From NCBI GenBank assembly GCA_043817645.1, contig JBDRGP010000029.1, positions 58,226 through 122,225 of the forward strand: a stretch of DNA of 64,000 nucleotides, read 5' to 3'. The DNA comes from Candidatus Woesearchaeota archaeon. GTDB taxonomy: Archaea > Nanobdellota > Nanobdellia > SCGC-AAA011-G17 > JACPIM01. Each line of letters starts with the position of its first letter. Position 1 is the first letter of the stretch. Of the stretch, positions 3,382 through 63,600 are shown piece after piece. The notes under the pieces were generated by a model. The model searched no databases. It was given only the letters and a program-made list of their open reading frames with translations, and was not told the DNA's origin. Made by a program: the position numbers and the translations under genes.

Positions 3382-3792
3382 TTAGACACGACGTCCACGC
3401 CTAAAGTGCTTTTTTCTGCAACCATCAGTAGGAGTAGCAGTAACATCCTCAATAACACCAATTCTTAAACCCATTCTAGATAAAGCTCTTATAGCGGCTT
3501 GTGCACCAGGACCAGGATTATTAGGCCCATTATGCCCGCCAGGAGCTCTAATTTTAATATGAATAGCATTCACACCTTTCTCAAGAGCAGCCTCTCCTGC
3601 AATTTTAGCAGCATTTGTTGCAGCAGTAGGAGAACTTTCTAATCTATGTGCTTTAACAACCATGCCGCCAGAGGCTTTCGCTATTGTTTCAGAACCTGTA
3701 ATATCCGTAATATGGATTATACTATTATTATAACTGGCATAGATATGACAAACTCCCCATCTCATTGGTCTTTGCTCTTTTTGAAATACCAT
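3382..3792 (-). CDS. rps11: 30S ribosomal protein S11 (uS11)
   Basis: [110 protein letters not shown] is the canonical uS11. Confidence 0.9.
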
Positions 3793-3865
3793 ATCAAAAA
3801 TCTGCGAATATTTGTTTATAAACTTTATGAAAACCTTTAAAAATGAATTTATCTTTATTCAGAGA

Positions 3866-3964
3866 AGCAGAGTAGAACAGAATTGCCTTAAAGGTAGTGT
3901 TCAATCAGGAGTGTTCGCTGGGCTCATAACCCAGAGGTCGTTGGTTCAAATCCAACCTCTGCTA
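3866..3964 (+). tRNA. Initiator tRNA-Met (anticodon CAT, 3925-3927) with an apparent ~24-nt insertion in the D-loop (non-canonical intron)
   Basis: Folded by hand. The acceptor is agcagag/ctctgct with an A1:U72 pair. The D-stem is gaac(3875-78)/gttc(3913-16). The anticodon arm is ctggg-CTCATAA-cccag, with the GGG:CCC pairs typical of archaeal initiator tRNA. The T-arm is gttgg-TTCAAAT-ccaac and the discriminator is A. 34 nt lie between the D-stem halves, where 8-11 are expected. Confidence 0.65.
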
Positions 3965-3970
3965 GCGAAT

Positions 3971-4002
3971 CCAGGAGTTTTACTACTCTTGGATTTTTTT
4001 TA
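3971..4002 (+). terminator. Hairpin (ccaggag...ctcttgg) followed by a T9 tract immediately 3' of the tRNA
   Basis: The hairpin has a 7-bp stem with one G:U. A T-run follows, as is typical of archaeal termination signals. Confidence 0.45.
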
Positions 4003-4078
4003 TTTACTTTTTGCCATTCTCTAAATTTTTTAATGTGCTTCGACTGCCTAAATTTAATAATTCTTATTGTGATACTTT

Positions 4079-4276
4079 TTAACCCTTATTTTTAATCTTC
4101 AAATAGCGTCCAACAGACAATTTACAAGCCCTAGCATTCCTTATTTGACTATCAATAATTACCTTCTGTTGTTCACTCCAAACTTCATCAGGATTATTTT
4201 TAACATAATTAGCCCAGTAGTCTACAAAGTTCATCCTATCTTCTTTATTATCCCTACCAGGTTTAAGTTTTTTCAT
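4079..4276 (-). CDS. Hypothetical small protein
   Basis: 65 aa. It overlaps the upstream nucleotidyltransferase ORF by 14 nt. No recognisable family. Confidence 0.35.
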   Translation of the reverse strand: MKKLKPGRDNKEDRMNFVDYWANYVKNNPDEVWSEQQKVIIDSQIRNARACKLSVGRYLKIKNKG

Positions 4277-4889
4277 TTTCTATAAGTCTCTTATAATCAT
4301 CAATCTTTTTAAAATCTATCTTTTCTCCAAACACTTCTTCAATATGCTTCGCATCTTCTAAATCCTTATCAGATTTTAAATAATACTTCTTGAAGGCTAT
4401 TTGCTTCTCCAATGAAGAAACATAAACCTCACTAAGTTTAGTTATAACAGTAATCCTATCGCTGAACGTTTCTTTTGCTAACCTATCTTTCGCAACTTTA
4501 ACTTCAAAATTTGGAATAGTTTCATTTTTTAAAGCAAAGCGTATTGCCAGATCATCCATTAGATATTTATACATTTCATCAACATTACTCGTATTTAAAC
4601 ACCAGAATCCATTTTCTATTAAATCACTACAAAGAAGATTAAACTTCTCTTTATTTACTTCCTTAATAAAAACGTCTACGTCCTCAGTAGACCTGGACCT
4701 CCCAAACAAAATAGAAACATATCCGCTAACAATAACGTAATCTGTATGCTTTTCCAGTATTTTTGTAAACTTGACCACAAATCTATCTAATTCATTTATG
4801 ACCTTGTCTAACCTTATAGTGCTCTTGTCAATAAATTCCATAGAATAAATAAAGTCTTTAATTTTATAAACCCTGCGCGTGTTTGTCAC
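4263..4889 (-). CDS. Nucleotidyltransferase-fold protein (Pol-beta-like NTase domain)
   Basis: 208 aa. VIVSGYVSILFGRSRSTEDVDVFI fits the hG[GS]x9-13Dh[DE]h NTase signature. Confidence 0.55.
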   Translation of the reverse strand: MTNTRRVYKIKDFIYSMEFIDKSTIRLDKVINELDRFVVKFTKILEKHTDYVIVSGYVSILFGRSRSTEDVDVFIKEVNKEKFNLLCSDLIENGFWCLNTSNVDEMYKYLMDDLAIRFALKNETIPNFEVKVAKDRLAKETFSDRITVITKLSEVYVSSLEKQIAFKKYYLKSDKDLEDAKHIEEVFGEKIDFKKIDDYKRLIENEKT

Positions 4890-4962
4890 GTATGCGTCGT
4901 TCAGAAAATATATATTGAAGAATACATAACAAAATAATACCAGTAAGGCCTAACTAAAACAA

Positions 4963-5223
4963 ATGGAAATCAAAAAGAAAGCCTGGCCAGAATTATTCCA
5001 AGCTGTTTTAGAAGGAAAAAAGAAATTTGATCTTAGATTGGCAGATTTTGAATGCGCTCCAGGAGATACACTAATTCTTGAAGAATGGGATCCAGATACT
5101 AAATCCTACACAGGAAGAAAAATAGAAAAGAAAATAACCTATATCCTTAAAACAAAAGACCTAAAATTTTGGCCTAAGGAAGATATAGAAAAACACGGAT
5201 TTCAGGTCATGTCTTTTGAATAA
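4963..5223 (+). CDS. DUF3850 / ASCH-PUA-like small RNA-binding-fold protein
   Basis: 86 aa. WPELFQAVLEGKKKFDLRLADFECAPGDTLILEEWDPDTKSYTGRKIEKKITYIL matches the conserved DUF3850 pattern (WPEYFEAV..GKKTFE.R..D..F.VGD.L.L.EY). Confidence 0.6.
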   Translation: MEIKKKAWPELFQAVLEGKKKFDLRLADFECAPGDTLILEEWDPDTKSYTGRKIEKKITYILKTKDLKFWPKEDIEKHGFQVMSFE

Positions 5224-5227
5224 TATT

Positions 5228-5370
5228 CAAGTCTTACCAGCAATACAATTAGCACATAAACTTCTTTCTCTACTAAAGCACAAATCACACACTAAAGACC
5301 CACAGCGTATACAACTATTCTCACCTATATTCTTACCACACGCAATACAGATTTTAACCTGCTCGACCAT
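5228..5370 (-). CDS. Small zinc-ribbon protein (four CxxC pairs), not in the ORF track
   Basis: The reverse-strand translation is MVEQVKICIACGKNIGENSCIRCGSLVCDLCFSRERSLCANCIAGKT (47 aa). Confidence 0.4.
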
Positions 5371-5414
5371 ATAATTTCATAACAGTTATATACTATTTAA
5401 TCCTTTCTTTTCGT

Positions 5415-6263
5415 ATGTCTCAGGACGTAATATTTTACTATGTAAAGGTATTTCCAAAACTAAAGAAATTCCTAAAAAACAGGGAAATAGCCACCATTAT
5501 GAAGCTAAAAGACACTGAAATAGTAAGAAGAGGCTCAAATCACCCTCCTTTATACATAAAAGACCTAAAAAAAATCAACAAAAAGTTCCAGGAACTAAGA
5601 AAAGGCAACATCCACCTAAAAGACATAGAATCCCAATTGTCCAATATCCAAATAAAAATTTGGCAATATTTCGTTCCTAGAAAACTCATAGAGCTACATT
5701 ACGCAGTCAATCAAGAACACCCAAATAAACCCTTAGAAAGAGTATATTTTGACATAGACAGAAAAGACATTCCAGCAGAAAAAGCACAATTAGTAGCCCT
5801 AAAATTAATAGAAACCATAAAAAAAGATAAAACCTTCAGATTAGAGTATAAAATATTTCCTATGTGGACAGGAAACTCCTTCCATATATACCTTTTATTA
5901 AAAAAGAAAATTCCTCATTCTTTTTATGAAAAAAACTTCCATGTAGATATAAACCACCAAAAAGACTCCTTTACTGGAAGATGGGCTCTTAAAATAAACA
6001 AAGAACTAAAAAACATTAAAGTAGTAGCAGGCCATCAGAAAAAACAAGGCTATATCAACATAGATCCTTCACAATCACCATCAGGTAAAATTTCTCGTTC
6101 TCCCCTTTCCTTATACATAAAAAATTATTCTTCAATAAGGGGTATTGCCCTCCCCTTAACCATAGAAGACTTAAAAAATAAAAACCTAATAAAAGAATTA
6201 AGGGGTTACACTATAGAAAAAGTTATAAAAAATCTCAATAAACTAGCTAAAAAATTACCATGA
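5415..6263 (+). CDS. Archaeo-eukaryotic primase (AEP) catalytic-subunit-like protein (PriS-like)
   Basis: 282 aa. It has a motif I DxD (RVYFDIDRKD), a motif II SGxxxH-like (MWTGNSFHIY) about 40 residues later, and a motif III hD (YINIDPS). The spacing is consistent with PriS. Confidence 0.5.
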   Translation: MSQDVIFYYVKVFPKLKKFLKNREIATIMKLKDTEIVRRGSNHPPLYIKDLKKINKKFQELRKGNIHLKDIESQLSNIQIKIWQYFVPRKLIELHYAVNQEHPNKPLERVYFDIDRKDIPAEKAQLVALKLIETIKKDKTFRLEYKIFPMWTGNSFHIYLLLKKKIPHSFYEKNFHVDINHQKDSFTGRWALKINKELKNIKVVAGHQKKQGYINIDPSQSPSGKISRSPLSLYIKNYSSIRGIALPLTIEDLKNKNLIKELRGYTIEKVIKNLNKLAKKLP

Positions 6264-13277: not shown

Positions 13278-14156
13278 GTGCCTAATTATAGCATGAAAGA
13301 TGCTATAAAATGTAAACATTGTTCAAGTTCGAACTTTTGCAAGAAAGGATTTAGAAAGACAGATTATCGAGGGAAAATTCAAAAATATTATTGTAAAAAC
13401 TGTAAGAGATTCTTTACAAATGATGAGGGGTTTTATAGAATGAGATTTAATCCTAAAACGATAACCATGTCTGTTGATATGTATTTATCAAATCTATCAT
13501 CAAGAAAGATGAGAAACCAATTAACAAGGCACTTCTCGATAAAAGCCAGTCACATGACTATACTAGACTGGGTTAGAAGATATAGCTTGAAAGTTCATAA
13601 GTTTGTTGAGAACTTAGGTTACAATCTTGGAAATCATTTTTATGCAGATGAAACGGAGATTAATAGATTAGGACACAGAGATAATTTCTGGGCTTGTGTT
13701 GATTGGGACACAAGAATGATAACAGGAATACATTACTCTGTTGCTACAAATATAAAAGAAGCAACAGTTTTCATACAGAAATCAGTTAGCAAAGGAAAAC
13801 CAAAATACATTCAAACAGATTCGGCTCAGTTTTACCCGAAAGCGTTCAAGAAATTATTTTATTCAAATAAAATTGGTGGCTTGGTAGTAGAGCATAAAAT
13901 ACAAAATGTTAGAAAAACTAAGATACATAACTATAAGATAGAAACCGTTTTCATGAAAATAAAAGATAGAGTCCATGATTTTAGGGGACTAAAGGCCTTA
14001 TGGTCTGCTCCAATAATCATGACTGGTTTAACAATACAGCATAATTTCATAGAACCTCATTGTAATAAACAAGAGTTTCCTTGTAACCTTGCTGGAGTTG
14101 ATTTAGGTTTAAAAGAAAACAGATGGTTGGATTTAATAAGGATGAGTTCACGATGA
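13278..14156 (+). CDS. IS6-family transposase (archaeal type with N-terminal zinc finger)
   Basis: 292 aa. The N-terminal CKHCSSSNFC...CKNCKRF is a Zn finger. The DDE region includes ADETEI, and length and organisation are typical of archaeal IS6. Confidence 0.7.
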   Translation: MPNYSMKDAIKCKHCSSSNFCKKGFRKTDYRGKIQKYYCKNCKRFFTNDEGFYRMRFNPKTITMSVDMYLSNLSSRKMRNQLTRHFSIKASHMTILDWVRRYSLKVHKFVENLGYNLGNHFYADETEINRLGHRDNFWACVDWDTRMITGIHYSVATNIKEATVFIQKSVSKGKPKYIQTDSAQFYPKAFKKLFYSNKIGGLVVEHKIQNVRKTKIHNYKIETVFMKIKDRVHDFRGLKALWSAPIIMTGLTIQHNFIEPHCNKQEFPCNLAGVDLGLKENRWLDLIRMSSR

Positions 14157-15283: not shown

Positions 15284-16471
15284 TTGATTGTTTTCATAAA
15301 TTCGTATTCTAGAGATTTTAATAGTTATAACTTTATTAAAAATCCCAAAAATAGTTTCCCCAAAAGTGGTCTAACCGTCAGAACGAAAACATTTAAATAT
15401 GCCAAAGTCTTTTATGAGTTTATGGAAAAAAGAGTGGTATTCCCAAAAGGGAAACAAAGGGAGTTTTTAGTCTCTTCAAGAAAAGAACTAAAACTAACCT
15501 GGCCGGAATTTGCTGAAAAAGTCGATACAAAAAGAAAAACTCTAGAAAAGGCCTATAGATATGAATATTGTTCGATGCCATATGGGGTTTTTTCTAAAAT
15601 AGTTAATGAAAGAAACATCAATAAAAAGAGACTTATTAGAGATTATAATATCAAAATAGTAAAAGGAAGTAGATATGGTGCAATTGGAAGGAAGGTGTTA
15701 GGAGAAAAAAGAGCGAAATTAGGCAATATCAACCTTTTATTTGAAAATTCTATACATCCATTTAACACTAGCGTTATAAAATTAAGCAAATATGATGAAA
15801 TTAAGAGAATAAAATTTCCAAATAAATTAACTCCAGAATTAGCTGAAGAAATCGGCATGCATATAGGAGACGGTTTTTTATCCAAAAGAAGGAACGAATA
15901 TCGTTTAAAGGGGAATAAAAATAACGAAAAAGATTACTACAAATACTTCATCAAAAAGCTTTACAAGACTTTGTTTAATTTAGATATTAATCTAAAAGAA
16001 TATGAATCGACATATGGATTTGAAATAAGCTCAAAAGGTCTCTGGACATTTAAAAATAAAATTTTGGGTATTCCATCAGGGAAAAAAGATGATATAGATT
16101 TGCCCGCAATTATAAAAGTGAATGACAAAGATATCCTAACTTCATTTATCCGAGGAGTTTTTGACACAGATGGTTGTGTTAACTTCAAAAGTGGATACGG
16201 TCTAAAGGGATATTACCCAAGAATAGAGATAACAATGCTCTCAAAAGATTTAATAGGGAGCATATCGGAGATATTATATGCATTGGGATTAAAACCATAT
16301 AAGCATCAAGATAAACTAGGATATTGGCATATTACTTTAAATGGCTATGAAAGATTTGAAAGATATAATAAATTAATAGGATGGCATAATCCCAAACACT
16401 TAAGAAAGATAAAAAAATGGAAAAAACAATATCCAAAATTAGGAAAGGATGTAATGGTAGGGGTAGTGTAG
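15284..16471 (+). CDS. Free-standing LAGLIDADG homing endonuclease (two LAGLIDADG motifs) with a ~180-aa N-terminal extension
   Basis: The motifs are IGMHIGDGFL and IRGVFDTDGCV. The last ~5 codons and the stop run into the 5' end of the tRNA-His gene. Confidence 0.7.
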   Translation: MIVFINSYSRDFNSYNFIKNPKNSFPKSGLTVRTKTFKYAKVFYEFMEKRVVFPKGKQREFLVSSRKELKLTWPEFAEKVDTKRKTLEKAYRYEYCSMPYGVFSKIVNERNINKKRLIRDYNIKIVKGSRYGAIGRKVLGEKRAKLGNINLLFENSIHPFNTSVIKLSKYDEIKRIKFPNKLTPELAEEIGMHIGDGFLSKRRNEYRLKGNKNNEKDYYKYFIKKLYKTLFNLDINLKEYESTYGFEISSKGLWTFKNKILGIPSGKKDDIDLPAIIKVNDKDILTSFIRGVFDTDGCVNFKSGYGLKGYYPRIEITMLSKDLIGSISEILYALGLKPYKHQDKLGYWHITLNGYERFERYNKLIGWHNPKHLRKIKKWKKQYPKLGKDVMVGVV

Positions 16472-16546
16472 CCTGGTTAGTTTTTACCCAGAAAACACGC
16501 AAGTCTGTGGAGCTTGAGATCGCGGGTTCAAGTCCCGCCCCTTACC
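16456..16546 (+). tRNA. tRNA-His (anticodon GTG, 16507-16509) with encoded G-1 and an apparent ~14-nt insertion in the D-loop
   Basis: Folded by hand. G-1 pairs with C73. The acceptor is gtagggg/cccttac, and the D-stem is gtgt(16466-69)/acac(16495-98). The anticodon arm is caagt-CTGTGGA-gcttg, and the T-arm is gcggg-TTCAAGT-cccgc. 25 nt lie between the D-stem halves, and the insert can form a gtttt/aaaac hairpin. Confidence 0.6.
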
Positions 16547-16568
16547 CGTTTTCAAAAAAGAGGTCAAA

Positions 16569-18515: not shown

Positions 18516-19091
18516 CTAAAAAGTCTCCACCCCAGTACCTAAGAGAATAGTCATAACTAACAAAGCTACAATTACTACCAAAAGCAGTATAACTGCCCAA
18601 GGTACAATATAAATCAAAGTTGCTTTTAAATTGCTAAATTTATACATCTTATTTGTTCCGATAATAATCAAAACCAAAGAATAAATCCAAACAAAAAGAT
18701 TAACAATAGGAATCCATCCAAAAACTAGTTTAGGAGTTACACTATACGCATACAATTTATACGCATCAGAATAAGTTCTTCTTCCACGAAACACTCTAAG
18801 CCAAATAAACAAAAACCAAGCTATCAAAAAACTAGCCCCTAACAAAAGAGCATAATTTATCAAAGAAGTTTGAATTAATGGGATAAGACCAAGTTTGGGA
18901 ATAGGAAATGGAAGAAACCAAGTATATGCCCTTGACCAAAACGAAGATATAATCACACTAAGCACAGCAGAAATTAAACTCAATATAAAGAAAAACCTAA
19001 AAGCCTTACCAAGACCTTTTTCCTTATCTACAGCAGAAAAGAACTTTCCAGGATGAAATAGAATATCTCTTACCTTTTCAATTATATTCAT
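18516..19091 (-). CDS. Yip1-like integral membrane protein
   Basis: 191 aa with 5 TM helices. The N-terminus MNIIEKVRDILFHPGKFF is typical of Yip1/DUF1282. Confidence 0.45.
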   Translation of the reverse strand: MNIIEKVRDILFHPGKFFSAVDKEKGLGKAFRFFFILSLISAVLSVIISSFWSRAYTWFLPFPIPKLGLIPLIQTSLINYALLLGASFLIAWFLFIWLRVFRGRRTYSDAYKLYAYSVTPKLVFGWIPIVNLFVWIYSLVLIIIGTNKMYKFSNLKATLIYIVPWAVILLLVVIVALLVMTILLGTGVETF

Positions 19092-19128: not shown

Positions 19129-21288
19129 TCAAGGCAAAAGATCCATCCTGTAAGACCACAACCAAACCTCGCAATTTTCCACTTGATGGGCTCTAGAAGT
19201 TATACAAAGTCCTAAAACTTCTTGATTTTCATCAAACTCCGCATATAAACCATAAAAATCATCAAAAGTAGTACCCCATCTCCTATGTCCTCCCTCATAA
19301 TCATACATAACACTCTCGCCACATTCAACTGATTCAGGATATGCTCTAAGAAAATCCTCTAAGTTATCTCCTATACCAATTCTTCTATTCGTCTCACCTG
19401 TCCACCCCGGACCTACAAAGACATGTCCCAAATTGTTATAGGACCAAAGTAAATGAACACCACCATTAATACTTCTCATCTCTAAAGTATCTCCGTAACC
19501 TCCATCATGTCCTTCAAAAATATCAAAATCAGGACAATCATCAGCCAGGTGGTTTCTATCAGTAGTTCGAAGCCTTAAACCACCAAAACCAGCATAATTC
19601 ACTTCGAGAAAAATATTAGAATCCTGACTTAAACAATCGCTATAGCCGACCGGGGGTGGAGGAGTAAAACCAAAAATAAACATCTTTTTTTCTCCTGTAG
19701 AAGTATGCAAACCCCAATAAGGCTCAACAGGCGCCCAGTCTTTCCAAGGTTGATCAAATGCCTCAAAAAAGGAAAAGGCTATTCCAGCATGATTCTCATT
19801 GTATAATAACTCATAAAAAAATTCCAACTGCGTTAACTCACTAACTTCAGGATCACCACTAGTAGGCATTCCCGTTTCTTTAATCAAGATTTGTTTCTCA
19901 CCAGCAATGTTTTCCAATTGCCCATATACTTCAGCAACTCTAGCAGCCGCTTGTATAGGATCCTTTATATTCAACCAATAAGGATGGACATTTGGCAATA
20001 AAAATTCTCCAAACCCTACTAAATCCGGATTCTCAAAATAATCTTCAAATTGCTCTGTTGTTGAAACAGGCTTTTTAGTTCCGTTTCTTAAAGTTCTCCC
20101 AGCAGCAAGCAAATCTTCCAAAGTGTATCCACCATTTTGACCCAATAACTCATTTCCAATACAATAGCCATTAGAATATTCTCCCACATCGATAGCATCC
20201 TGTATCAAACCACCATTATTAGTAAACCAAACACCTGTAATCACACTCGCAAACCCAACTTCTTTTGCTATTCTTGGCACTTCTTTTAATGTACTCTCAA
20301 CATCATAAGTTATCAAACCAGTAAATCCTTCTTCTCTCAAAAGTTCTAAATCATCTCGTATACTCTCAACACTTGGAAATATTCCCTGCGTGGGATCAAA
20401 GTTTCTGGGAGCATAAGTTACCCACATACGACTACTTAGACTATTAGTTAAATTACGAACATTCCACTCATAACCCCAATCAAGCCTAACATCAAACGTT
20501 ATCTGCAAAGATTCACTAAGAGCAATCCCATCGCTTGCTTTAAAAGAAACCGTATCCATACCAACAAAATCAACATCAACTAATTGATATGTCAATTTAT
20601 TAGTATCAGTTATAACCGCAGTCCCATATTGCGGTTCATTAACAACCAAAAAAGTCAGGTCATCTCTATCTACATCACTCCCATACATATACACAGCCTT
20701 AGGATCTGTTCCACGAACAATGGCTTCTAAAGTATTGGCGCTAACAATAGGTGGATCATTCACATTTGCAACATTAATTGTAACCTTAGAACTGTTACTA
20801 TCAAATTCCCCGTCATTAGTCCTAAACCAGAAACCATCTTCCCCAAAAAAATCAATTTCAGGAGTATATGTCGCAACATTGCCATCCAATACAACCTCAC
20901 CATGGCTAGAACTACTAGTAACTCTAAAAGTCAAATCATCACCATCCTCATCAGTACCATTTAATACAATACCTAAAGGCGTTTCTTCCAGTACATTTAC
21001 ATTCATATCCCCAGTTTTAGGAGCATGATTAATATCCTCACCCTGCTGTGAATCTCCATCGCCAGAGCCCCCATCACCCACTGGAGGATCTGGAGTAGTA
21101 TTACCATCTCCTAAAAAAGGATCTTGAGGAGTTTCATCAATTATTGGATCATCTACTGGATATTCAGTCACAGGAGGCTCAGTAAGAGGAACAGCAGAAG
21201 GCGTAGGCGGTATACACCCCCATCCAGCAACTCCAACAACACCACCAATTAAATATTTTTTTAAAGACCTCATTTTCGCACCTCCCAA
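19129..21288 (-). CDS. Secreted protein: signal peptide, Thr/Pro/Asp-rich linker, two cadherin-like/VCBS-type repeats, and a GH17-like (beta-1,3-glucanase-like) TIM-barrel domain
   Basis: 719 aa. The repeats are NHAPKTGDMNVNVLEETP...TYTP and NDPPIVSANTLEAI...TYQL. The glycosidase motifs are CIGNELLG (acid/base region) and LIKETGMPTSGD, which matches the GH17 nucleophile motif TETGWPS. Confidence 0.55.
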   Translation of the reverse strand: MGGAKMRSLKKYLIGGVVGVAGWGCIPPTPSAVPLTEPPVTEYPVDDPIIDETPQDPFLGDGNTTPDPPVGDGGSGDGDSQQGEDINHAPKTGDMNVNVLEETPLGIVLNGTDEDGDDLTFRVTSSSSHGEVVLDGNVATYTPEIDFFGEDGFWFRTNDGEFDSNSSKVTINVANVNDPPIVSANTLEAIVRGTDPKAVYMYGSDVDRDDLTFLVVNEPQYGTAVITDTNKLTYQLVDVDFVGMDTVSFKASDGIALSESLQITFDVRLDWGYEWNVRNLTNSLSSRMWVTYAPRNFDPTQGIFPSVESIRDDLELLREEGFTGLITYDVESTLKEVPRIAKEVGFASVITGVWFTNNGGLIQDAIDVGEYSNGYCIGNELLGQNGGYTLEDLLAAGRTLRNGTKKPVSTTEQFEDYFENPDLVGFGEFLLPNVHPYWLNIKDPIQAAARVAEVYGQLENIAGEKQILIKETGMPTSGDPEVSELTQLEFFYELLYNENHAGIAFSFFEAFDQPWKDWAPVEPYWGLHTSTGEKKMFIFGFTPPPPVGYSDCLSQDSNIFLEVNYAGFGGLRLRTTDRNHLADDCPDFDIFEGHDGGYGDTLEMRSINGGVHLLWSYNNLGHVFVGPGWTGETNRRIGIGDNLEDFLRAYPESVECGESVMYDYEGGHRRWGTTFDDFYGLYAEFDENQEVLGLCITSRAHQVENCEVWLWSYRMDLLP

Positions 21289-21408: not shown

Positions 21409-22407
21409 ATGAAAAGAAAACTAATCAAACAGGGACATAATACAACAACAGTAACCTTACCAATAAATTGGGTCAAAAAATTAAATCTAAAAAGCGGTGA
21501 TGAAGTTGATGTTGAAGAACAGGGGAATTCATTAATAATAAATGGAAAAGAAAGCAATCAACATAAGAGCACAACCCTAGATATTTCTGATTTTACTGTA
21601 CCTATGATTTGGAGATTTTTCCAACCAGCGTATAGACAAGGTTATGATGAAATAAAAGTAGCATTCAATCCTGATAAAAAAAATTTTGAAAGTGTTTATC
21701 ATTATTACACAACACAATTTGCCTATACAAAACTTGGAGAAAAACGTCCTGCAAAACCAGCCGTAGATATGATCCAAGAACTTATAGATAGGTTCATAGG
21801 AATAGAAATAATGGATATAGGAAAAAATTATTGCATAATAAAAGATATGACTGAACCAACCACAAAAGAATACCCAAATTCACTAAGAAGAATATTTATG
21901 ATCATTTCAAACATATTTGATAGAGTAATAACAGCAATAGAAAACAATGAAATAGGTGATATAAAAATCTGTAAAGAGCTTCATACAATGGACCTAAATG
22001 CTGATAGATTTATAGACTATTGCTGCAGGATACTAAACAAAATAAATGACTCCGCACCTCAAAGAAAAAAAGCTTCTATATTCGCTAGTTTATTTATTCT
22101 TGAGTTACTTTCTGACGAATTTAAATATATAGGTGTTCACTTAGCCAAAGCAAATAAAAAAGTAAGCGATATTCTACCTTTTGGAGAAAAAGTTAGGGAA
22201 CATTTCAAACTTTATGAAAACCTATTTTATAATTTTGACAGAGACTTAGCCATAAAATTCGGAAAAAATGATTTCTCTATTTATGATGAACACTCTAGTT
22301 GGAAGAAAAAGATAGCAGGAGAAAATAAAAGTATAGCCGGACATTTAATGCAAATTAGCAAATATTTACTCTGCTTAGTAGAACTCAGAATAGAAATGGA
22401 ATCATAG
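21409..22407 (+). CDS. PhoU-family regulator with an N-terminal AbrB/SpoVT DNA-binding domain
   Basis: 332 aa. The N-terminus KRKLIKQGHNTTTVTLPINWVKKLNLKSGDEVDVEEQGNSLIING is an AbrB swapped-hairpin. The helical remainder is consistent with the archaeal PhoU-like architecture. Confidence 0.5.
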   Translation: MKRKLIKQGHNTTTVTLPINWVKKLNLKSGDEVDVEEQGNSLIINGKESNQHKSTTLDISDFTVPMIWRFFQPAYRQGYDEIKVAFNPDKKNFESVYHYYTTQFAYTKLGEKRPAKPAVDMIQELIDRFIGIEIMDIGKNYCIIKDMTEPTTKEYPNSLRRIFMIISNIFDRVITAIENNEIGDIKICKELHTMDLNADRFIDYCCRILNKINDSAPQRKKASIFASLFILELLSDEFKYIGVHLAKANKKVSDILPFGEKVREHFKLYENLFYNFDRDLAIKFGKNDFSIYDEHSSWKKKIAGENKSIAGHLMQISKYLLCLVELRIEMES

Positions 22408-35447: not shown

Positions 35448-37374
35448 TAAGAGTGTTGTAGAGGTGGATGAGGAAGAGGTTTAGGGAATAATTGGAGTCA
35501 ATTGTGAGAGTCTATCAATTGAGGAGTGTACAGCAAATTCGGAGAGATGTGAAATTGCAAATGTAGAAGTAGCTTCTTCTGGAGGATGTGGACGGGAGAC
35601 AACTTCCTTTAGAGATAGGTGCATTGATAAACGAACCGAAGAAGCGTGTGAGCTTAATGGTGGGGAAATTTGTAGTGGTTGTTGTGAAAATATACTTTTT
35701 TCTACAGATGAATTTGTTTGTTGCAGACAGAATAATTGCTTTGTTGACGAACTTACAAGAGACTATACTGGATTAAGATGGGTGTGGACAAACGAATATA
35801 AGTTTATACCGATTGATAATGCGAAAATTACAAGAACATTTCCTGATGGGGAGTATGTGGTTGTTGCTAAAGATATTTATGGCACAACATATAGTGCGAT
35901 ACTTGATAAAGATATAGAAGGGCGTCCCTTAGAAGGAATATCGTCTTATAAATTTAATCTAGGCCCCTATGATCCTCTGAGGGAGGTAGATTTACTTGAA
36001 AGTGAGTGTCTTTTTAGTATAACTTCAATTAGAGATGGTAAACTCTATCCTACTATTAATCCAAGGACGGGTTTGCGAGGAACAATATTTTCTTTTGCTT
36101 TTTCTGTTGATTCCACTGGAATAGAATATATGCCTGCTTCTAGCGATTCTGCTGGAATAGAAAGTGTGTTTGTTTCTACTGTTTCTTCTGGTTTTTCATA
36201 TAGAGTAAATACGGTGGAAAGGGAAGTAGAGAGGGCATATTTTGTACTTTCTGATTTAGGGGGTAATGAACTTTTAGTAGCGGATATGTATGACGATGGA
36301 TTACACGGAGATGGTGAAAACGGTGATTATATGTTTGGTGCAATATTTGACTCTTCATCACTTCCAGTTGGACTATACAAACTTCGATTTTATGTTATAG
36401 ATAATTTTGGCATGGATAATAGTCGAGATTTTTCTTTGAAAATTGAGGATGAATCGGCATTTCAATCTAATTGTATTGAGGTTTATCGAGGTCATAATAG
36501 AGTTGAGGCTCATAACAGAGCAAATGCAATCTTTATCGGGTATGGTTATGATTCCATAACTGATGTAGCAGAGATAAGTAGATGGCAGATGGATAAGCTT
36601 TTGGAGTTAACGCCTTTTAATGAGAATCGAAATAAAATTAATTTTTGGGTGGTCAATGAGATAGGAAGTTTAGACTTATGTCATGATGTAGACTACATTT
36701 TTTATGAATCTGTGGATTGTATTTCGGATTTAAAACAAAGATGCCCCTTTTCAAATGCATTTGTAAATCATCTTGTAAATAGGGATTTTAGATCGCATGC
36801 ATACCCCGCTGTTGAAGAAACTCATAACTCCTTTCCTCTAGAGAGATTGGGTCGCGATTATTTGCTCGCTCATGAGTTTGGGGGGCATACTTTTGGCAAA
36901 CTGTTAGATGAGTATGTAGAACCTGATAATCCAGACAATGTTTTGAATAGTCTCTTCCATGATATACCGTATGTGCTTCCGCAATATGGACCTAATTGTT
37001 ATTCTACTATCGAAGACACTACTTATGATCAATGTTGGCAAAATGCCCCTTGGAAGGAGTTTTTTGGTAGAGGTTGTGGTGATGAAGGCGTAATTGATTG
37101 TGAAAACCTTGTTTTAGAGAGGCAAAGATGCATACTCGCGTGTATAGATCTGTATGAAGATTTGAATGAAAGAACGTCTTGTGTGGATTCTTGTCCAGTA
37201 TACCCAGAAGGTGCTGAAAGAGAAATTACTTGTGTTGAGGGTTGCCAATTATTTGAGCATGGTACCTTCAGACCGAATCACTGTAGTCTTATGATGGCTC
37301 CTGAATTTTGCCTATATTTCGGCTTGTGGAATGAGCATTTATTACAGCAAAAATTAAATCAGTATTCGGAATAA
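35086..37374 (+). pseudogene. Secreted Cys-rich protein: one continuous reading frame (~762 codons) interrupted by a single in-frame TAG at 35482-35484; the C-terminal part carries an HEFGGHT...DEY zincin-like motif
   Basis: ORFs 35086..35484 and 35782..37374 are in the same frame, with no other stop between them. The first ~120 codons are near-identical to the start of gene 41020..43314. Confidence 0.5.
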
Positions 37375-41019: not shown

Positions 41020-43314
41020 ATGAGAAGAGGTTATGCTAAGATCTACTTTATTGTTCTTATTCTTTTAGTGAGTTTTAGTTTCTTTTTTAATTTTGATGGT
41101 TTGAAAGATATTACTGGAAGGATTACTAGAGAAGAGTTATGTACTGATGATATTTGTGATACTGATCTTTATGTAGGTGGCGAGATTCTTGAAGATGCGC
41201 GTGCAAATGTCTGTAAAGAGGAGGGAATAGTTGGTGTGAGAGAGCGCATTTCTGAGTTTCCTAGAGAATATTATCCAGACACTTATGGTGGGCTAGAGAA
41301 TTCTAATGGTGAATATCACTTTACTTTATATGATGGTAGAGATGCGATGGTTTATTTTGCTTTTACTGAAGATAGAAGGAGAAAATGTTCTGACGAAAAT
41401 ATTATAGAGGAACCTTCTGTTTCGAAGGAAGGGACTTTTACTGTTTCAAATCCTTGTATGGGACTGCCAGAAGATGAATGTGGACTAACAGAAGGATGTG
41501 TTGTAGATTATAGGGAACAGGGTCAATCAGGTGGAATTGGAAATTGTTTTGGTAAACAAACGCAAATAGTACCTGTGTGTCTTGATGGCGGAGAAGAATG
41601 TGTTCCTATTTTACCTACTACGCCTGAAAAAACCTTAACTTTTGTGGATGAAAAAGATGTTCCTATTGAAGTTACTGTAACAAAAACTAATTCTGGATTT
41701 TCTTTTCGTAGGAGTTCTGGAGGCGAGTATTCAACAAACACACTAGCAACTGGAGAGTATTGTACGGTTGTAGGAGTGAATTTTCTCACAGGTATTGAAA
41801 ATTATAACTATCAAATGCAGATCGAAAGTTGTAGTGGAGAGGGAGAAAATAGGATTTGTACATATGTCCCAAATGATCTGACCTGGAATCTTGTTGATAC
41901 AGAAGGAGAATATGTTTACAACCAGGCGTTGAGTGGTGAAAATCAAGAAGAAAATTGCCCTCCTCTTCTTCCTGCCACCTTTTCTTGCCCTGAAGAAGGC
42001 TGCCCAAATCCCTATCCTGGATTGTGCAATATCTGGGCTCTTCCTGTTCAGATTCCTGTTTTAATAGGTGCATATTGTGATGGGTGGGATGCACGAGAGT
42101 TAGCTACTGGAGCAAATGCACAACAAGAAGTAGCTGATTGTGATCAGCGGGTGAGGGATGCTATTGAAGGCAGTGGAGAATGTAATAATAATCCGCCAAC
42201 CGTTTCATCTAGTGGGAAGTCAACGCCCAACTTTAAGGAAGGAGATAAATGCGAGCTAATGTGGGCTGTTAATGATATTGAAGATTCTTCAAATCAAAAA
42301 GAAACAGACCTTTTTGTCCCGCGCATTATAGATGAACCCTCCATTAATGATCTTTTTTCTAAAAACCCTCCTTATGAACAGATTATGCCTTATGTTATAT
42401 ATGATAAAGAAGGCAAACTCTATTCTCAAGGGACCAATTTATTTAGGAGGGTGGTAGGAAGAGCTATTGATTCTGGGACTGATCAGGATGGTAAGCTTTG
42501 TCAAGAAAAAGGAGAGGCAGAAACCTCAAAAGAAATAATAATCCCAACGGTTGAATTTCGAGGGAAGAAGGCCGTCCAGTTACCGACGCTTAAATTTGAG
42601 ATTACCAAAACCACCTACAAGGATAGTTGTGATCCTAAGGGGATACTTGATGCGGGGTTTGTTATTGAGACAACCATTGAAAGATGGCTTATACTTGAGG
42701 ATTGTCAGATTGCGGGAAAGACTACTCTTAATTTTAAGTATAGAAATATGTTCTTAGGATCTCCATCAAATTATTCTGTGAGAACGGGACTTTTTGAAGC
42801 AGTTGAGAAGGCTTTGGAGGGGGGTATAAGTGAAGCCAATCTTGAAAAGGTCAAAGGATTTATCTTTAGGTATTATACTCCGCCACCCCACAAGGAATGG
42901 CAATATGCTCCTTTAATTGTTGAGTCTGTCGATGGAAAAGTATACTTAAGCACTATTGATCACGAGATGACTGAAGGGCTTGCCTTGCTTCCGAATAAAC
43001 AGAAAGATTTATTATTGACTCCGCCAGGGAGTTTGAACTTTAAAAGTATAGAAAATGATGAAGGTGAGGAGGCACTTAGATCAATTGAGATTAATGTGGA
43101 AGAAGGTGCTAATGGTGCGGCTAAAAGATGTTTCAATAATCTAAAAGAAGATGATCAAGATGGGGGATTTTGGGGAAAAAGGAGTATAAGACAAGAGAAC
43201 CAAGCTAAAAAATTTGCTGAAATAGAGGCTTTCTATACTGGATATATTAAAGGACACTATGATAAACTAGGAGAATATTTTGAAAACGCAAGGTCTTGTC
43301 TTTGTAAGGAATAA
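41020..43314 (+). CDS. Large secreted Cys-rich protein, paralog of 35086..37374 (shared N-terminal module)
   Basis: 764 aa with a signal/TM, then many Cys pairs. The first ~125 codons are near-identical at the DNA level to 35086-35447. Confidence 0.6.
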   Translation: MRRGYAKIYFIVLILLVSFSFFFNFDGLKDITGRITREELCTDDICDTDLYVGGEILEDARANVCKEEGIVGVRERISEFPREYYPDTYGGLENSNGEYHFTLYDGRDAMVYFAFTEDRRRKCSDENIIEEPSVSKEGTFTVSNPCMGLPEDECGLTEGCVVDYREQGQSGGIGNCFGKQTQIVPVCLDGGEECVPILPTTPEKTLTFVDEKDVPIEVTVTKTNSGFSFRRSSGGEYSTNTLATGEYCTVVGVNFLTGIENYNYQMQIESCSGEGENRICTYVPNDLTWNLVDTEGEYVYNQALSGENQEENCPPLLPATFSCPEEGCPNPYPGLCNIWALPVQIPVLIGAYCDGWDARELATGANAQQEVADCDQRVRDAIEGSGECNNNPPTVSSSGKSTPNFKEGDKCELMWAVNDIEDSSNQKETDLFVPRIIDEPSINDLFSKNPPYEQIMPYVIYDKEGKLYSQGTNLFRRVVGRAIDSGTDQDGKLCQEKGEAETSKEIIIPTVEFRGKKAVQLPTLKFEITKTTYKDSCDPKGILDAGFVIETTIERWLILEDCQIAGKTTLNFKYRNMFLGSPSNYSVRTGLFEAVEKALEGGISEANLEKVKGFIFRYYTPPPHKEWQYAPLIVESVDGKVYLSTIDHEMTEGLALLPNKQKDLLLTPPGSLNFKSIENDEGEEALRSIEINVEEGANGAAKRCFNNLKEDDQDGGFWGKRSIRQENQAKKFAEIEAFYTGYIKGHYDKLGEYFENARSCLCKE

Positions 43315-58500: not shown

Positions 58501-60066
58501 TCACGTTGGAGGATCTTCATAAACAACACGATAAAGAATAACAGAAAACAGCTTAGCAGTAATGATAGGTTTATCACTAATTCTTCCATATACAACCAAA
58601 GAAACACAAATATTCACTAAAACCCACAAATTATACAAACACACTGAAAATAAGAAATAAAACAACCTTATCAAGTAATTCTTACTAGTAGTTCTGGCCT
58701 TAAAATCATGATCTAATTGCCTATATCCAGTTTCAATACCCCATCTTTTAGAATACCAATAATAAAGATAATGAGCTAATTGTTCTGGAACATGAAAATT
58801 AGTGATAAAGGCTCTTTGAATACCTTCCTCATCATCTACTAGAATTAGATTAACTTTGGCTTTCTCCTTCTTACCAAACTCAAAATCTTTAATTATTCTA
58901 GCTCTACAATCCAAACTTTTATCCATCCAAGCCTTAACTCTATCACTCCTTACTTTAGGCATTACAAACTTAATTCTATTGGCCTTAAGAACATTAATCA
59001 CCTTTGGCTTATCAAAACCCCTATCTAAATAAGCCTTATCAATATTTATTTTATCTTTAACTCTTTTAATTATTTTATCAACTAAGTCCTCTAAATTATC
59101 CAATTTATGCATTAATATGGCATCAATCGTAAACCTTCTTCCAGCAACCACAATAGCACATGTAATAAATTGATGAAAATGTGTTGTACCTCTATCTAAT
59201 TTCCCTTCAATTACATAATCATCGTTCTTATCACCATAATAAGGAATATTATGAATGTCTATAGCTATATCTAACTGTCTTCTTCTTAATCCTCTATAAT
59301 TTCTCTTAGCAAAGTTAAAAATAGTGTTAAATACATTATCAAACATCTCTTGTATTATTGTTTTATTACTAAATTTATTAAAGTGATATAACATAGTCCA
59401 GCCACTAGGACATTTCGATTCTGAATTTAATTCTTTAAAAGTTTCAGTACCATTATGGGCAAAATCATGTGTTTGTGCAACATGTACCAAGACATCTAAC
59501 AAATCTTTAGTAGTAAACTTACCATTATTTTTAATCTTAATATCAATTTGCGGATAAATTAATTTCTTTACTAATTTTATAGTTTCTTTTTTTATTTTTC
59601 TTTGTTCTTTAATCTCTTTATTTTTTTGATTAACTGCATTTTTTACTAATTCTAAATCTAAAATAACTCCTTTTTTAGTTGCAGTTTTAAGAATTAATTT
59701 TACTATATTATTTAATTCAAAAAATAAATCTTCATCAACTTTATTCTGGAAAAATCTATTATACCAACTTTTAGCAGGTAAAACTAATTTATTACTCTCT
59801 TTATGAAATCCTAAATGTAACGCTTCTTCCTCCGTTATTTGATCTAATGCTTTATGAAAGAACCTTATTGCTTTGATTTTCTTCCAAAGATAGAATTTCA
59901 GTAAAGATTCAGGAGAGAATTTAGATTGTCTTTGATTGATTACATTGGTAGTATTAGAGAGATCTAACTTGGATAAAATAAAAGAAACCTTAATACAACT
60001 TGTAGTATCAAGGCTTTCAAAAATTTTATTAAGTTCAGATTCCAAATAGCCAATAGAGTTTTTCAT
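58501..60066 (-). CDS. DDE transposase (IS4/ISH3-like family)
   Basis: 521 aa. It has DRGFDKPKV..., a typical DDE-IS4 C-terminal region. Confidence 0.6.
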   Translation of the reverse strand: MKNSIGYLESELNKIFESLDTTSCIKVSFILSKLDLSNTTNVINQRQSKFSPESLLKFYLWKKIKAIRFFHKALDQITEEEALHLGFHKESNKLVLPAKSWYNRFFQNKVDEDLFFELNNIVKLILKTATKKGVILDLELVKNAVNQKNKEIKEQRKIKKETIKLVKKLIYPQIDIKIKNNGKFTTKDLLDVLVHVAQTHDFAHNGTETFKELNSESKCPSGWTMLYHFNKFSNKTIIQEMFDNVFNTIFNFAKRNYRGLRRRQLDIAIDIHNIPYYGDKNDDYVIEGKLDRGTTHFHQFITCAIVVAGRRFTIDAILMHKLDNLEDLVDKIIKRVKDKINIDKAYLDRGFDKPKVINVLKANRIKFVMPKVRSDRVKAWMDKSLDCRARIIKDFEFGKKEKAKVNLILVDDEEGIQRAFITNFHVPEQLAHYLYYWYSKRWGIETGYRQLDHDFKARTTSKNYLIRLFYFLFSVCLYNLWVLVNICVSLVVYGRISDKPIITAKLFSVILYRVVYEDPPT

Positions 60067-60605: not shown

Positions 60606-63600
60606 TTGATAAAAAAGAATATTCTTTTGCCGATATTCATTTTATTAATAATTATAAGTTTCTCTGCTATTGTTATCTCTCAAAAAACTTCTCTTCAAAA
60701 AGCAAATTCTATAAAGAACATAGATGATTCTGATATGCTTTATAAGTTTACACATTTAAAAGGATATAAATCTATCAGTTTTGATATCTCCTCTTCTAAG
60801 GACTTTAATATTAATAAAGTTGAAAAAATTGATACTTTTTCTGATAAAAAAGTTGGGAATATATTTAAATTGAATAATTTAGCTGTAGAAACGGAGTATA
60901 AAGAGGTAGACACAAGTTTTTTTAATACAGATACAAGACCTGTAAAGCAGACTTATATCATAAAAAATTTATTAGATAAATCTAGAGATATAAAGTTAAA
61001 TATAAAATACGAAATTGACTCTTCTACTATAACATGGAATGGTACAGAATATGAAATCACTGAAACTCCTAAACATTTTGAGGCCTTTTATGTTGAAGAT
61101 GAATTTTTTCCCGATAATGAACTTTCTCCTGAAATTGCTATTAAATCTTTAACAGGGCATACTTTATATTTTGGTAATAATTATTATGATTTTAAAGATG
61201 TAGTTGATTTGGATTATAAAGTTTTAATATATTCTAAAGAAAATAAAAATTATATTGGTTTAGAAATAAAATCCGATATTGATTCTTTAGAAGAATTTGT
61301 GATAGATCCTGAAATTGGGTGGACAACCAGGATTGTAGATAATTCAGCAAAGGGAGCAAGGGATGTGTTTGCAATAGATATGGATAATGATAATGACATA
61401 GATGTAGTTGGCGCATCTTTTGCAGGATTGGTTAATAAGATTGCCTGGTATGAAAATGATGGAAACTCTCCTCCAAGTTGGACCACTAGAAACATAAGTA
61501 CAATCATTGTTTGGAGTGAACCACGTTCAGTCTATGCAATAGACATAGATAATGATAATGACATTGATGTGTTGACTGCATCTTCTCAAGACAATAGGGT
61601 TGCCTGGTATGAAAATGATGGGGGTTCTCCTCCAAGTTGGACTACAAGAAACATAACTACTTCTGTTGATGCAGCACAGGATGTTTTTGCAATAGACATA
61701 GATAACGATAATGACATTGATGTGTTGAGTGCATCTTATTATGATAATAAGATAGCATGGTATGAGAATGATGGATCTACACCACCATCCTGGACCACTA
61801 GAAACATAACTACTTCAGCAAATGGAGCTCGCTCTGTTTTTGCAATAGATATGGATAATGACAATGATATAGATGTGTTAAGCGCTTCGGGAAGTAAGGT
61901 CGCTTGGTATGAGAATGATGGAAGTACTCCTCCTAGTTGGACTGCTAGAACTATAACTACTTCAGCAAATGCACCAAGGCGTGTGTTTGCAATAGATATG
62001 GATAATGATAATGACATAGATGTGTTAAGCGCTAATTATGATAAGATAGCTTGGTATGAGAATGATGGAAGTACTCCTCCCAGTTGGACTGCTAGAACTA
62101 TAACAACTTCAGTAGGTGCAGCAAGGGATGTGTTTGCAATAGACATAGATAATGATAAGGATATAGATGTGTTGAGTGCATCTTCTCATGATGATAAGAT
62201 AGCATGGTATGAGAATGATGGAAGTACTCCTCCCAGTTGGACTACTAGAATTATAACAACTTCAGCAGATGCAGCATATTCAGTCTATGCTATAGATATA
62301 GATAATGATGGAGATGTGGACGCTTTAAGTGCATCTACTACAGATGGTAAGATTGCTTGGTATGAAAGTCGTTTAGACCCTTCTTCTATTTATAAGTATT
62401 TGTGGGTCCCATTTGGAAATTGGAACTCTCAACAGGAATTTGAAAATGATGCTAAAAAAAGAGCAGACTTTTTCCTAGAAATTTCTCCTTTACAATCCTG
62501 TAAAAGTAAAGCACAGAATATTTATATTGATATTGACTGGGTAGAAGTTAATTGCCCCTATGTGACATCAGACATTCCTGAAAAAAAATTATTACAATTT
62601 ACAGAAAAGTGCGCAAAGGCTTATATATTAGACACTGGTATAGGACCTTATGAAAAAGCAATAAGCTTTTCTAAAGATGATTTTTGTGATAGTTGTGCTG
62701 GAAAGGCTACTCTAGGTGGAAAATATGCTTATGCTGAAACTGAGTGGAGTGGGGTTGAGCATCTAGAAATCGCCGCACACGAATTAGGGCATACTTATTT
62801 TGTATGTGATGAATATAAATATCTTGGAACTTCAGGATGGTCTAATGAGAATAATGAGTTGTTATTAAAGCACGGGTTTGGTTGCCCGAATCCTTGGACT
62901 GATACATATGATGAGTATAATGAAACACACTCTAACCATCCATGTTTAGAGGATGATAGTGGAAGATGTATTCGCGAGGGAAAATGTTGTGGTGCCTTTA
63001 ATGACCCAATTAGCCATTACGATGGAATTTATTCTGCTGCTGGCAATGATTGTACTGATGAGACTACCTATAATGTTGTTGGGTGGGGTGGCACAGAGAG
63101 AAGATGTGGATATAGTACCGATTCTTACAACAAATTAGCAGAATTTTTAACTTGTTCAGATAATCTACGATCCAACGGAAATGGAAATATCACAAATGTT
63201 TCATATTTAGGTTTGCTATTTAATATAACTAATCCAACACAGGAAAATGTCACTTTGGGTGACAGCTTTGTTCATAGAGGATTGTTGCCTAAGAAATTAG
63301 GCGTCAATGATAGTCTTTATGAACTAAAGATCACTAATGCCAATAATCAAACTATAGATTCAGATCCATTACCAGTATTCTACTTTGAACTAGTGCAATA
63401 TGACAATGCAACTATAAATGTAAGCGATGATAAAAATGAAAGTTTTATTGTTAGTGAGTTAGAATACACATCAAATTGGGAAATGTTGCAGGTTTATAAA
63501 AACGATTCTTTAATTTATGAAGTCAATATTTCTCATTTATTATGCAATGAAAATGATATTTGTGATGAAAAAGAGAACTTCTTTAGCTGTCCACAAGATT

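Follow-up and report, generated by a model that had tools for sequence, protein, structure and literature searches.

A gene of a Candidatus Woesearchaeota archaeon, located in a stretch of 64,000 nucleotides (contig JBDRGP010000029.1, positions 58,226 to 122,225; hereafter the window), encodes a protein whose closest described counterparts belong to glycoside hydrolase family 17 (GH17). Among these, RmBgt17A of the fungus Rhizomucor miehei (PDB 4WTP, 4WTR and 4WTS) is a transglycosylase with a compact (beta/alpha)8 barrel. The GH17 endo-laminarinase of Formosa Hel1_33_131 (PDB 6FCG), a secreted prokaryotic hydrolase of beta-1,3-glucan, belongs to a laminarin utilisation locus of the Bacteroidota. 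The GH17 endo-1,3-beta-glucanases of plants (potato 3UR7/3UR8, barley 1GHS, banana 2CYG, Hevea 4HPG; Pfam PF00332) carry an extra aglycone subdomain (PMC11005184). In our literature search, no report of GH17 enzymes in DPANN or other archaea was found; a comparative-genomics study of DPANN describes other glycosidases (MalZ, BglB, SGA1 and AmyA) in about 37% of genomes. Our analysis indicates that the woesearchaeal protein is a divergent GH17 member, and we consider it reasonably likely that it is an exported, tethered, retaining beta-glycosidase of a divergent prokaryotic GH17 clade, most likely hydrolysing beta-1,3-glucan. The open reading frame (ORF), its catalytic domain and the predicted active-site residues are located as follows.

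19129-21288, minus strand: whole ORF, 719 amino acids from a TTG; the probable real coding sequence is 19129-21273, 714 amino acids from the ATG at 21273 (M6)
19666-20487, minus strand: GH17-like (beta/alpha)8 catalytic domain, amino acids 268-541, supported by phmmer, a family profile, AlphaFold2 and Foldseek
20149-20154, minus strand: N379-E380, predicted acid/base in the 'NE' motif of clan GH-A, just after strand 4
19876-19878, minus strand: E471, predicted nucleophile in IKETGMP, at the end of strand 7 (domain residues 202-205), 99% conserved
19762-19764, minus strand: E509 in FEAFDQPWK, third conserved acidic residue of the GH17 active site, in strand 8, 99% conserved

Homology searches with the whole protein were dominated by its cadherin-like repeats, and searches were repeated with the catalytic domain and the C-terminal module separately. 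As a single sequence compared with the PDB by phmmer, the query matched GH17 RmBgt17A (4wtp) with an E-value of 1.7e-6 across amino acids 296-528, an alignment that places its G-N-E on G-S-E and its I-K-E-T-G-M-P on I-S-E-T-G-W-P. The catalytic domain alone yielded about 105 homologues with 30-47% identity, many of which are labelled 'exo-beta-1,3-glucanase (GH17 family)' by the Joint Genome Institute (JGI). A profile of 96 family sequences matched RmBgt17A 4wtp at 4.1e-23 and Formosa GH17 6fcg at 4.1e-18, and also recognised GH17 proteins of potato, barley, banana, Hevea and cedar pollen (4e-8 to 9e-3 for the first four). PF00332 is matched by 65 of the 96 family members, and any other glycoside hydrolase family by at most one.

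The AlphaFold2 model of the catalytic domain, built with the family alignment, contains eight strand/helix units and has a mean predicted local distance difference test (pLDDT) of 96.9 and a predicted template-modelling score (pTM) of 0.93. When this model was compared with the PDB using Foldseek, the top five structures were all GH17 enzymes (4wtr, 4wtp, 6fcg, 8akp and 3ur8), with E-values of 1e-11 to 2e-9 and template-modelling (TM) scores of 0.67-0.79, or 0.72-0.79 for the first three; other enzymes of clan GH-A, including GH2 glucuronidases, GH39 and PslG, followed. The original prediction, made from the sequence alone, had proposed a GH17-like beta-1,3-glucanase domain and expected a (beta/alpha)8 barrel with glutamates at strands 4 and 7. 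The modelled barrel has exactly this arrangement, and phmmer, the family profile, the fold and the catalytic residues all uphold the GH17 homology. Since the best matches are not a non-glycosidase TIM barrel and neither glutamate is missing, the GH17-like call stands.

The two motifs on which that prediction was built are present as described, CIGNELLG at amino acids 376-383 (nucleotides 20140-20163) and IKETGMPTSGD at amino acids 469-479 (nucleotides 19852-19884). In the model, strand 4 comprises domain residues 107-110, and the acid/base E380 is domain residue 113. N379-E380 aligns to S-E of RmBgt17A, and the asparagine and the glutamate are each found in 95 of the 96 family members, while E471 aligns to the residue that was changed to alanine in the active-site mutant 4wtr (ISETGWP / ISATGWP). 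As HMMER places both motifs on the catalytic glutamates of a solved GH17 enzyme, these matches are not due to chance. The FEAFDQPWK block aligns in turn to YFSAFDEPYR of RmBgt17A. The sugar-contacting motifs of GH17 that are kept in the query include Y292, N379-E380, Y417, N433-x-H-P-Y-W438, E471, E509 and K516, and its catalytic and substrate-contact residues, 95-100% conserved in the family, are intact. Judged by its sequence, the protein is a divergent GH17 member that is recognised at profile level and not by the standard Pfam model, and we regard GH17 homology together with an intact active site as all but certain.

Compared with the described enzymes, RmBgt17A gives both the best sequence match (1.7e-6 with the single sequence, 4e-23 with the profile) and the best structure match (TM 0.72-0.75). 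Both proteins are compact (beta/alpha)8 barrels in which the acid/base, the nucleophile and the segments N-x-(F/H)-P-Y-W and F-x-A-F-D-(E/Q)-P align; they differ in that identity is about 18%, in that RmBgt17A has S-E where the query has N-E at the acid/base, and in that the fungal enzyme lacks the immunoglobulin (Ig)-like repeats and the C-terminal module of the archaeal protein. The Formosa enzyme (profile E-value 4e-18) gives the highest query-normalised TM score, 0.79, but is only 16% identical and larger, with 393 residues and insertions; unlike the Formosa enzyme within its utilisation locus, the query gene lies among housekeeping genes. The plant enzymes share the family-level fold and the motifs of strands 7 and 8, but at profile E-values of 4e-8 to 3e-4 only their C-terminal third aligns by sequence, and with 306-323 residues they are longer than the query domain. 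The true family of the query is the prokaryotic clade labelled as GH17 exo-beta-1,3-glucanases by JGI, with members in Chloroflexota, Planctomycetota, Omnitrophota, Saccharibacteria and DPANN, which share 30-50% identity over the whole catalytic domain and the same conserved residues. Most members of this clade are single-domain proteins or end in another C-terminal module, about 100 amino acids long, whereas only P0195 and P0222 share the C-terminal module of the query.

The complete protein consists of five parts, and besides the catalytic barrel these are the following four.

21214-21273, minus strand: predicted signal peptide with a lipobox-like end (MRSLKKYLIGGVVGVAGWG then C25), amino acids 6-25, read from the sequence
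21031-21213, minus strand: low-complexity linker or stalk rich in Pro, Asp, Gly and Thr, amino acids 26-86 (P13, D10, G8 and T6 in 61 residues)
20488-21030, minus strand: two Big_9/cadherin-like Ig-type repeats, amino acids 87-267, from Pfam and NCBIfam
19132-19665, minus strand: C-terminal module of 178 amino acids (542-719) with a BLIP/YfeY/DUF4309-like double-wing fold and no Pfam family

A GGAGGTG sequence lies just upstream of the ATG at 21273, and the NCBI protein MFH1592663.1 (714 amino acids), named 'MAG: Ig-like domain-containing protein [Candidatus Woesearchaeota archaeon]', is 100% identical to the ORF product and begins at M6; for these two reasons the true start is probably this ATG and not the TTG. 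The same match to a protein from a metagenome-assembled genome (MAG) of Candidatus Woesearchaeota, together with a gene for an archaeal nascent-polypeptide-associated-complex (NAC) protein in the window, which fits an archaeal origin, agrees with the archaeal assignment made earlier. Read directly, the N-terminus of the ORF, MRSLKKYLIGGVVGVAGWGC, resembles a signal peptide and ends in a lipobox-like cysteine. In the region V-A-G-W-G-C25, Gly occupies position -1, Trp position -2 and Gly position -3, and homologues show clearer lipoboxes at the equivalent place (LVGSGC in the Nanoarchaeia protein L017, LLIGC in the Woesearchaeota protein L021, PLSCG in the Pacearchaeota protein L013 and LTACG in P0005). 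The protein is therefore probably, as far as its sequence tells, exported and membrane-tethered at the cell surface.

The repeats were detected by Pfam as Big_9 (E-value 3.7e-21, 76.2 bits against a cut-off of 23.6), Cadherin_4 (5.1e-16, 59.4 bits, cut-off 25.1) and Cadherin_5 (4.5e-12, 46.1 bits, cut-off 26.5), each in two stretches. The NCBIfam tandem-95 repeat scored 1e-18 and 67 bits, under its whole-protein cut-off of 90, as is to be expected with no more than two repeats. The orthologues L013 and L017 have the same architecture of lipobox, Big_9 repeat and GH17-like domain, with one repeat where the query has two. Signal peptide, TPD-rich linker, two cadherin/VCBS-like Ig-type repeats and GH17-like domain had all been recognised in the original prediction; what it overlooked is that the last 178 amino acids form a separate domain.

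This C-terminal module shares its fold with the BLIP-like, DUF4309 and YfeY (DUF1131) double-wing lipoprotein domains. Its structural neighbours are YfeY of Escherichia coli (2QZB), the type VI secretion (T6SS) immunity protein TsiN (9J9W), YjgB/DUF4309 of Bacillus subtilis (4YGT) and an accessory domain of SCP proteins (4IFA and 4H0A); Foldseek gave no match, its best E-value being 0.015. It differs from the BLIP/YfeY-type structures in an identity of 7-11%, in a motif of its own and in its fusion to a glycosidase. Neither the module nor ten of its relatives have a match in Pfam or NCBIfam, and it is not a sequence member of the BLIP, YfeY or DUF4309 families. No similarity in sequence or fold to a carbohydrate-binding module (CBM) of CAZy was found either, and no structural neighbour is a known CBM. 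A word-based search with the module found a single relative, P0171 (193 amino acids, 52% identity, a stand-alone lipoprotein), whereas an exhaustive HMMER search found 138 cluster representatives at E <= 1e-3, mostly lipoproteins of 160-250 amino acids, some with tandem copies. Common to them is the motif H-x-G-G-x-G-D-T-L-E ... W ... G-W-x-G-x-T ... I-G-D-S ... Y-P, and by sequence comparison these representatives, at least 138 in number, constitute an unnamed family of their own.

The module is fused to a GH17-like domain in three proteins, namely the query, P0195 (partial) and P0222 (659 amino acids), and is missing from all 59 other GH17-like loci of the genome scan described below. P0222 is collinear with the query over both domains at 35% identity, which suggests a selected functional coupling. 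The module may bind substrate or a surface, anchor the protein, or regulate the enzyme.

In the mechanism that we propose, the signal peptide with its lipobox-like cysteine would anchor the protein at the cell surface, and the Pro/Asp-rich linker, together with the two Big_9/cadherin-like repeats, would keep the enzyme off the cell in the manner of a stalk or adhesion element. The (beta/alpha)8 domain would cut its substrate by double displacement, the classical mechanism of clan GH-A, in which E380 would be the acid/base and E471 the nucleophile, and the BLIP/YfeY-like module may serve as an accessory module that helps to bind substrate or surface. Breakdown of extracellular beta-glucan, such as laminarin or curdlan-type polymers or exopolysaccharide (EPS), would then release oligosaccharides that could feed a small fermentative archaeon.

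Several observations weigh against this reading. The query scores 13.9 bits on PF00332 (16.2 as an isolated domain) against a gathering score of 28.2, with a match covering model positions 225-301, although its orthologue L017 passes with 32.4 bits. Identity to any solved GH17 structure is 15-18%, and for this reason specificity is not confidently transferable. At five well-conserved positions the query departs from the family consensus (E361L, G381L, D428E, W450R and R532G), and G381L directly adjoins the acid/base E380. The lipobox is non-canonical, G-W-G-C compared with [LVI][ASTVI][GAS]C. The closest solved relative, RmBgt17A, is a transglycosylase and not a hydrolase, and our literature search found no characterised member of the prokaryotic GH17 clade. 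Finally, the surrounding 64 kb contain no genes for glycan utilisation such as transporters or beta-glucosidases.

Four other readings were weighed, the heaviest being a shifted specificity, followed by a transglycosylase, then by a weapon of recent acquisition, and lastly by an adhesin domain without catalytic activity. The first of these, which we consider possible though unlikely, is that a retaining clan GH-A glycosidase derived from GH17 has shifted to another beta-linked glycan, for example an exopolysaccharide or a surface glycan, so that the label 'beta-1,3-glucanase' would be wrong. The low identity to characterised GH17 enzymes, the Pfam score under threshold and the failure of the literature search to yield a characterised clade member would all be compatible with such a shift, as would the unusual, non-CBM accessory module and the presence of EPS hydrolases such as PslG among the next-best structural matches. 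Against it, every named relative found by sequence or profile is a GH17 enzyme, and the GH17 sugar-contacting motifs are kept. To our knowledge, the characterised GH17 enzymes in CAZy act almost exclusively on beta-1,3 or beta-1,3-1,4 glucans, which also counts against a shifted substrate.

A beta-1,3-glucanosyltransferase that remodels or branches beta-glucan, like RmBgt17A and the bacterial enzymes MlGH17B and Glt20, appears less likely still. It would agree with the transglycosylase RmBgt17A being the best match in both sequence and structure and with the compactness of the domain, since the matched stretches are similar in length and the alignment with the model spans all 266 residues of the 4wtp chain; the plant-type aglycone subdomain is missing from transglycosylases, but also from bacterial endoglucanases (PMC11005184). 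In RmBgt17A, mutation of any one of the aglycone-site residues Tyr102, Trp157 and Glu158 abolishes transglycosylation (PMC11005184). According to HMMER alignments at about 18% identity, Trp157 corresponds to W438, which is kept, whereas Glu158 corresponds to L439 and Tyr102 falls in a gap, so that the query has no equivalents of the last two. Across the family, the column of Glu158 holds H, A, S, N or Q and never Glu, and there is no Tyr in the column of Tyr102, where the query residue, G383, is an insertion missing from 93 of the 96 members. With two of the three residues lacking an equivalent, the alignment favours a hydrolase over a transglycosylase, which at this level of identity we take as a lean and as weak evidence against a transferase. 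In addition, no beta-glucan wall is known for such a small archaeon, and it is not obvious which of its own glucans it would remodel.

The original prediction had further suggested that the gene may have been acquired for attacking wall or biofilm glucans of host or partner cells. Read as the recent acquisition of a bacterial or eukaryotic gene that serves as a weapon, this scenario is one that we consider quite improbable. The somewhat higher GC content that it had noted is real: the gene has a GC content of 0.387 compared with a mean of 0.338 (standard deviation 0.033) over 43 ORFs of the window, about 1.5 standard deviations above it. However, GC at third codon positions (GC3) is 0.242, like that of the host genes (mean of the window ORFs 0.250), and the linker, the most GC-rich part of the gene at 0.453, has a low GC3 of 0.198. 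Because GC3 is normal and the GC peak lies in the Pro/Gly/Asp linker, the excess reflects amino-acid composition and not foreign codon usage, and horizontal transfer as deduced from composition was rejected on this basis.

We then considered the distribution of the family, using a scan of one genome per GTDB species and a trimmed core alignment of 16 sequences. The scan yielded 60 GH17-like loci, most of which are bacterial (Chloroflexota/Anaerolineae, Planctomycetota, Omnitrophota, Saccharibacteria, Bacteroidota, Acidobacteriota, Poribacteria and others). Seven of the 60 are labelled as archaeal, with three from Woesearchaeota, two from Pacearchaeota and one each from Nanoarchaeia and 'Methanosarcinales'. 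A rough neighbour-joining tree places the query beside a Pacearchaeota sequence (L004, 50% identity), and in it the other DPANN copies group together with one Saccharibacteria and one Sumerlaeia sequence. A transfer between host and symbiont, which the 'Methanosarcinales' locus L037 might have represented, was rejected; L037 and the Woesearchaeota locus L057 share collinear blocks over about 6.5 kb, the GH17-like gene included, at 84-94% nucleotide identity, and one of the two taxonomic labels is therefore probably wrong through mis-binning.

The neighbouring gene on the upstream side is informative in this respect.

21409-22407, plus strand: gene for an AbrB/SpoVT-type (PhoU-like) regulator, Pfam MazE_antitoxin/AbrB, head-to-head with the glucanase gene

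Homologues of this gene lie divergently beside the GH17-like gene in the Pacearchaeota locus L013 (237-1226, 39% identity) and the Nanoarchaeia locus L017 (4409-5185, 32% identity), and adjoin it in the Woesearchaeota locus L021 (7097-7642); L017 shares three further genes with the window. Retention of the AbrB-type neighbour in the Pacearchaeota and Nanoarchaeia orthologues marks the gene as an established one in DPANN, and synteny between Woesearchaeota, Pacearchaeota and Nanoarchaeia, with 32-47% identity of the proteins, points to old vertical inheritance. The gene has thus long been passed on vertically within this DPANN group and is not a recent acquisition of this genome. An ancient transfer between domains is possible, even likely, given the mainly bacterial distribution. 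The adjacency of the two genes may reflect simple synteny or a pair of regulator and target.

These results leave little room for a recently acquired weapon. The elevated total GC, the mostly bacterial family, its occurrence in ultra-small host-dependent lineages (Saccharibacteria, Omnitrophota and DPANN) and repeats of an adhesin-like type that suit cell-cell contact would be in line with it. Yet GC3 is ordinary, the nearest relative is archaeal, the DPANN copies cluster, the microsynteny with the AbrB-type and other genes is conserved, and the same family is common in free-living heterotrophs (Anaerolineae, Planctomycetota and Bacteroidota). Nothing in the 64-kb window indicates the use of the enzyme, including an attack on host walls or biofilm, and beta-1,3-glucan is not known as a polymer in the walls of archaeal hosts or of most bacterial ones, which also counts against this scenario.

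A non-enzymatic adhesin with a degenerate, catalytically dead GH17-like domain used for binding only, for which one could cite the NCBI name and the five departures from conserved positions (G381L beside the acid/base among them), is very improbable in view of the intact catalytic and substrate-contact residues, 95-100% conserved in the family, and the very confident barrel model.

Returning to the proposed tethered beta-glucanase, its recognition as a GH17 member corrects an under-annotation, as NCBI names the protein only as Ig-like domain-containing and Pfam misses the catalytic domain. The clade itself has already been recognised by the annotation of JGI, which is based on Clusters of Orthologous Groups, and was missed for the query by Pfam and NCBI annotation. 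It comprises about 100 homologues at 90% clustering from at least 60 GTDB species. In Woesearchaeota, Pacearchaeota and Nanoarchaeia, this divergent GH17 clade belongs to the predicted surface proteome as a stable component passed on vertically, not as a one-off transfer. DPANN are believed to rely on other cells or on substrates supplied by their community, so that a beta-glucanase tethered at the surface would provide a testable handle on their food or contacts. Current understanding is not overturned, since prokaryotes commonly have secreted enzymes of the GH17 type that carry Ig-like repeats; novelty is confined to the orphan C-terminal module, which is repeatedly found fused to this catalytic domain. 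Both the uncharacterised clade and the module, with at least 138 cluster representatives and no Pfam family, are reasonable targets for biochemistry. A more far-reaching idea, to which we give little weight, is that the module is a new accessory domain of glycosidases, either a binder of glycan or envelope or a BLIP-like lid that regulates or inhibits the enzyme, and that the anchored, stalked enzyme is a conserved DPANN device directed at beta-glucan of a partner or community and not merely at feeding.

Two further proposals concerning the module were rejected. P0171 is not half of a split GH17 gene pair, as its neighbours are unrelated, and the stand-alone module genes do not lie near glycosidases; their neighbours encode GAPDH, AsnC/TrmB regulators, a caspase-like peptidase and paralogous module proteins. 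No GH17-like ORF is present in the contigs with stand-alone module genes, L001 and L062-L066. The module family also occurs in paralogous arrays, located at 3608-4945 and 5001-5609 in L062 (the same in L063) and at 2893-3927 in L065, in the form of adjacent genes, of tandem copies within a protein, and of one copy in a 445-amino-acid protein with a MopE-like copper-binding match. The contigs with such arrays carry regulators of archaeal type (TrmB and AsnC). In L065, P0172 has two tandem copies of the module and is encoded about 1 kb from an AbrB/SpoVT-type gene (4937-5929).

The different C-terminal module of about 100 amino acids, with the motif ...WW.KP...TDITTGG(I/V)D..., was found in many GH17-like proteins of DPANN and Saccharibacteria and was seen in L013, L017, L021, L058, L002, P0020 and P0024. 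It had no Pfam match in L013 or L017, the two proteins scanned, and may be an uncharacterised binding domain specific to the GH17-like clade.

On the downstream side, the glucanase gene is followed by one gene at close distance.

18516-19091, minus strand: gene for a Yip1-domain membrane protein, 37 bp downstream of the glucanase gene and on the same strand

The two genes may be co-transcribed; the Yip1-domain gene is not conserved beside the homologues examined. The neighbours as a whole encode histidyl-tRNA synthetase (HisRS), the Yip1-family membrane protein, the AbrB-type regulator, aminotransferases, an M42 peptidase, an aldehyde dehydrogenase, SMC/ScpA and P-type ATPases.

Elsewhere in the window, a 91-nucleotide tRNA-Gly(CCC) was called by ARAGORN at 16457-16547 on the plus strand, where the Rfam tRNA model is silent at its gathering score, and this tRNA may be intron-containing or otherwise atypical. 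An ORF of 395 amino acids with a LAGLIDADG homing-endonuclease domain (15284-16471, plus strand) ends inside or abuts it. Two ORFs of 530 and 764 amino acids (35782-37374 and 41020-43314, both on the plus strand) have no Pfam match and are located where the GC skew is strongly positive. Two ORFs encode DDE transposases of the IS240 type and DDE_Tnp_1, at 13278-14156 on the plus strand and at 58501-60066 on the minus strand, the latter in the stretch of lowest GC content of the window (0.256-0.278). Close to it, at 60606-63977 on the plus strand, a protein of 1123 amino acids with FG-GAP/VCBS repeats is encoded, which is likely another surface protein.

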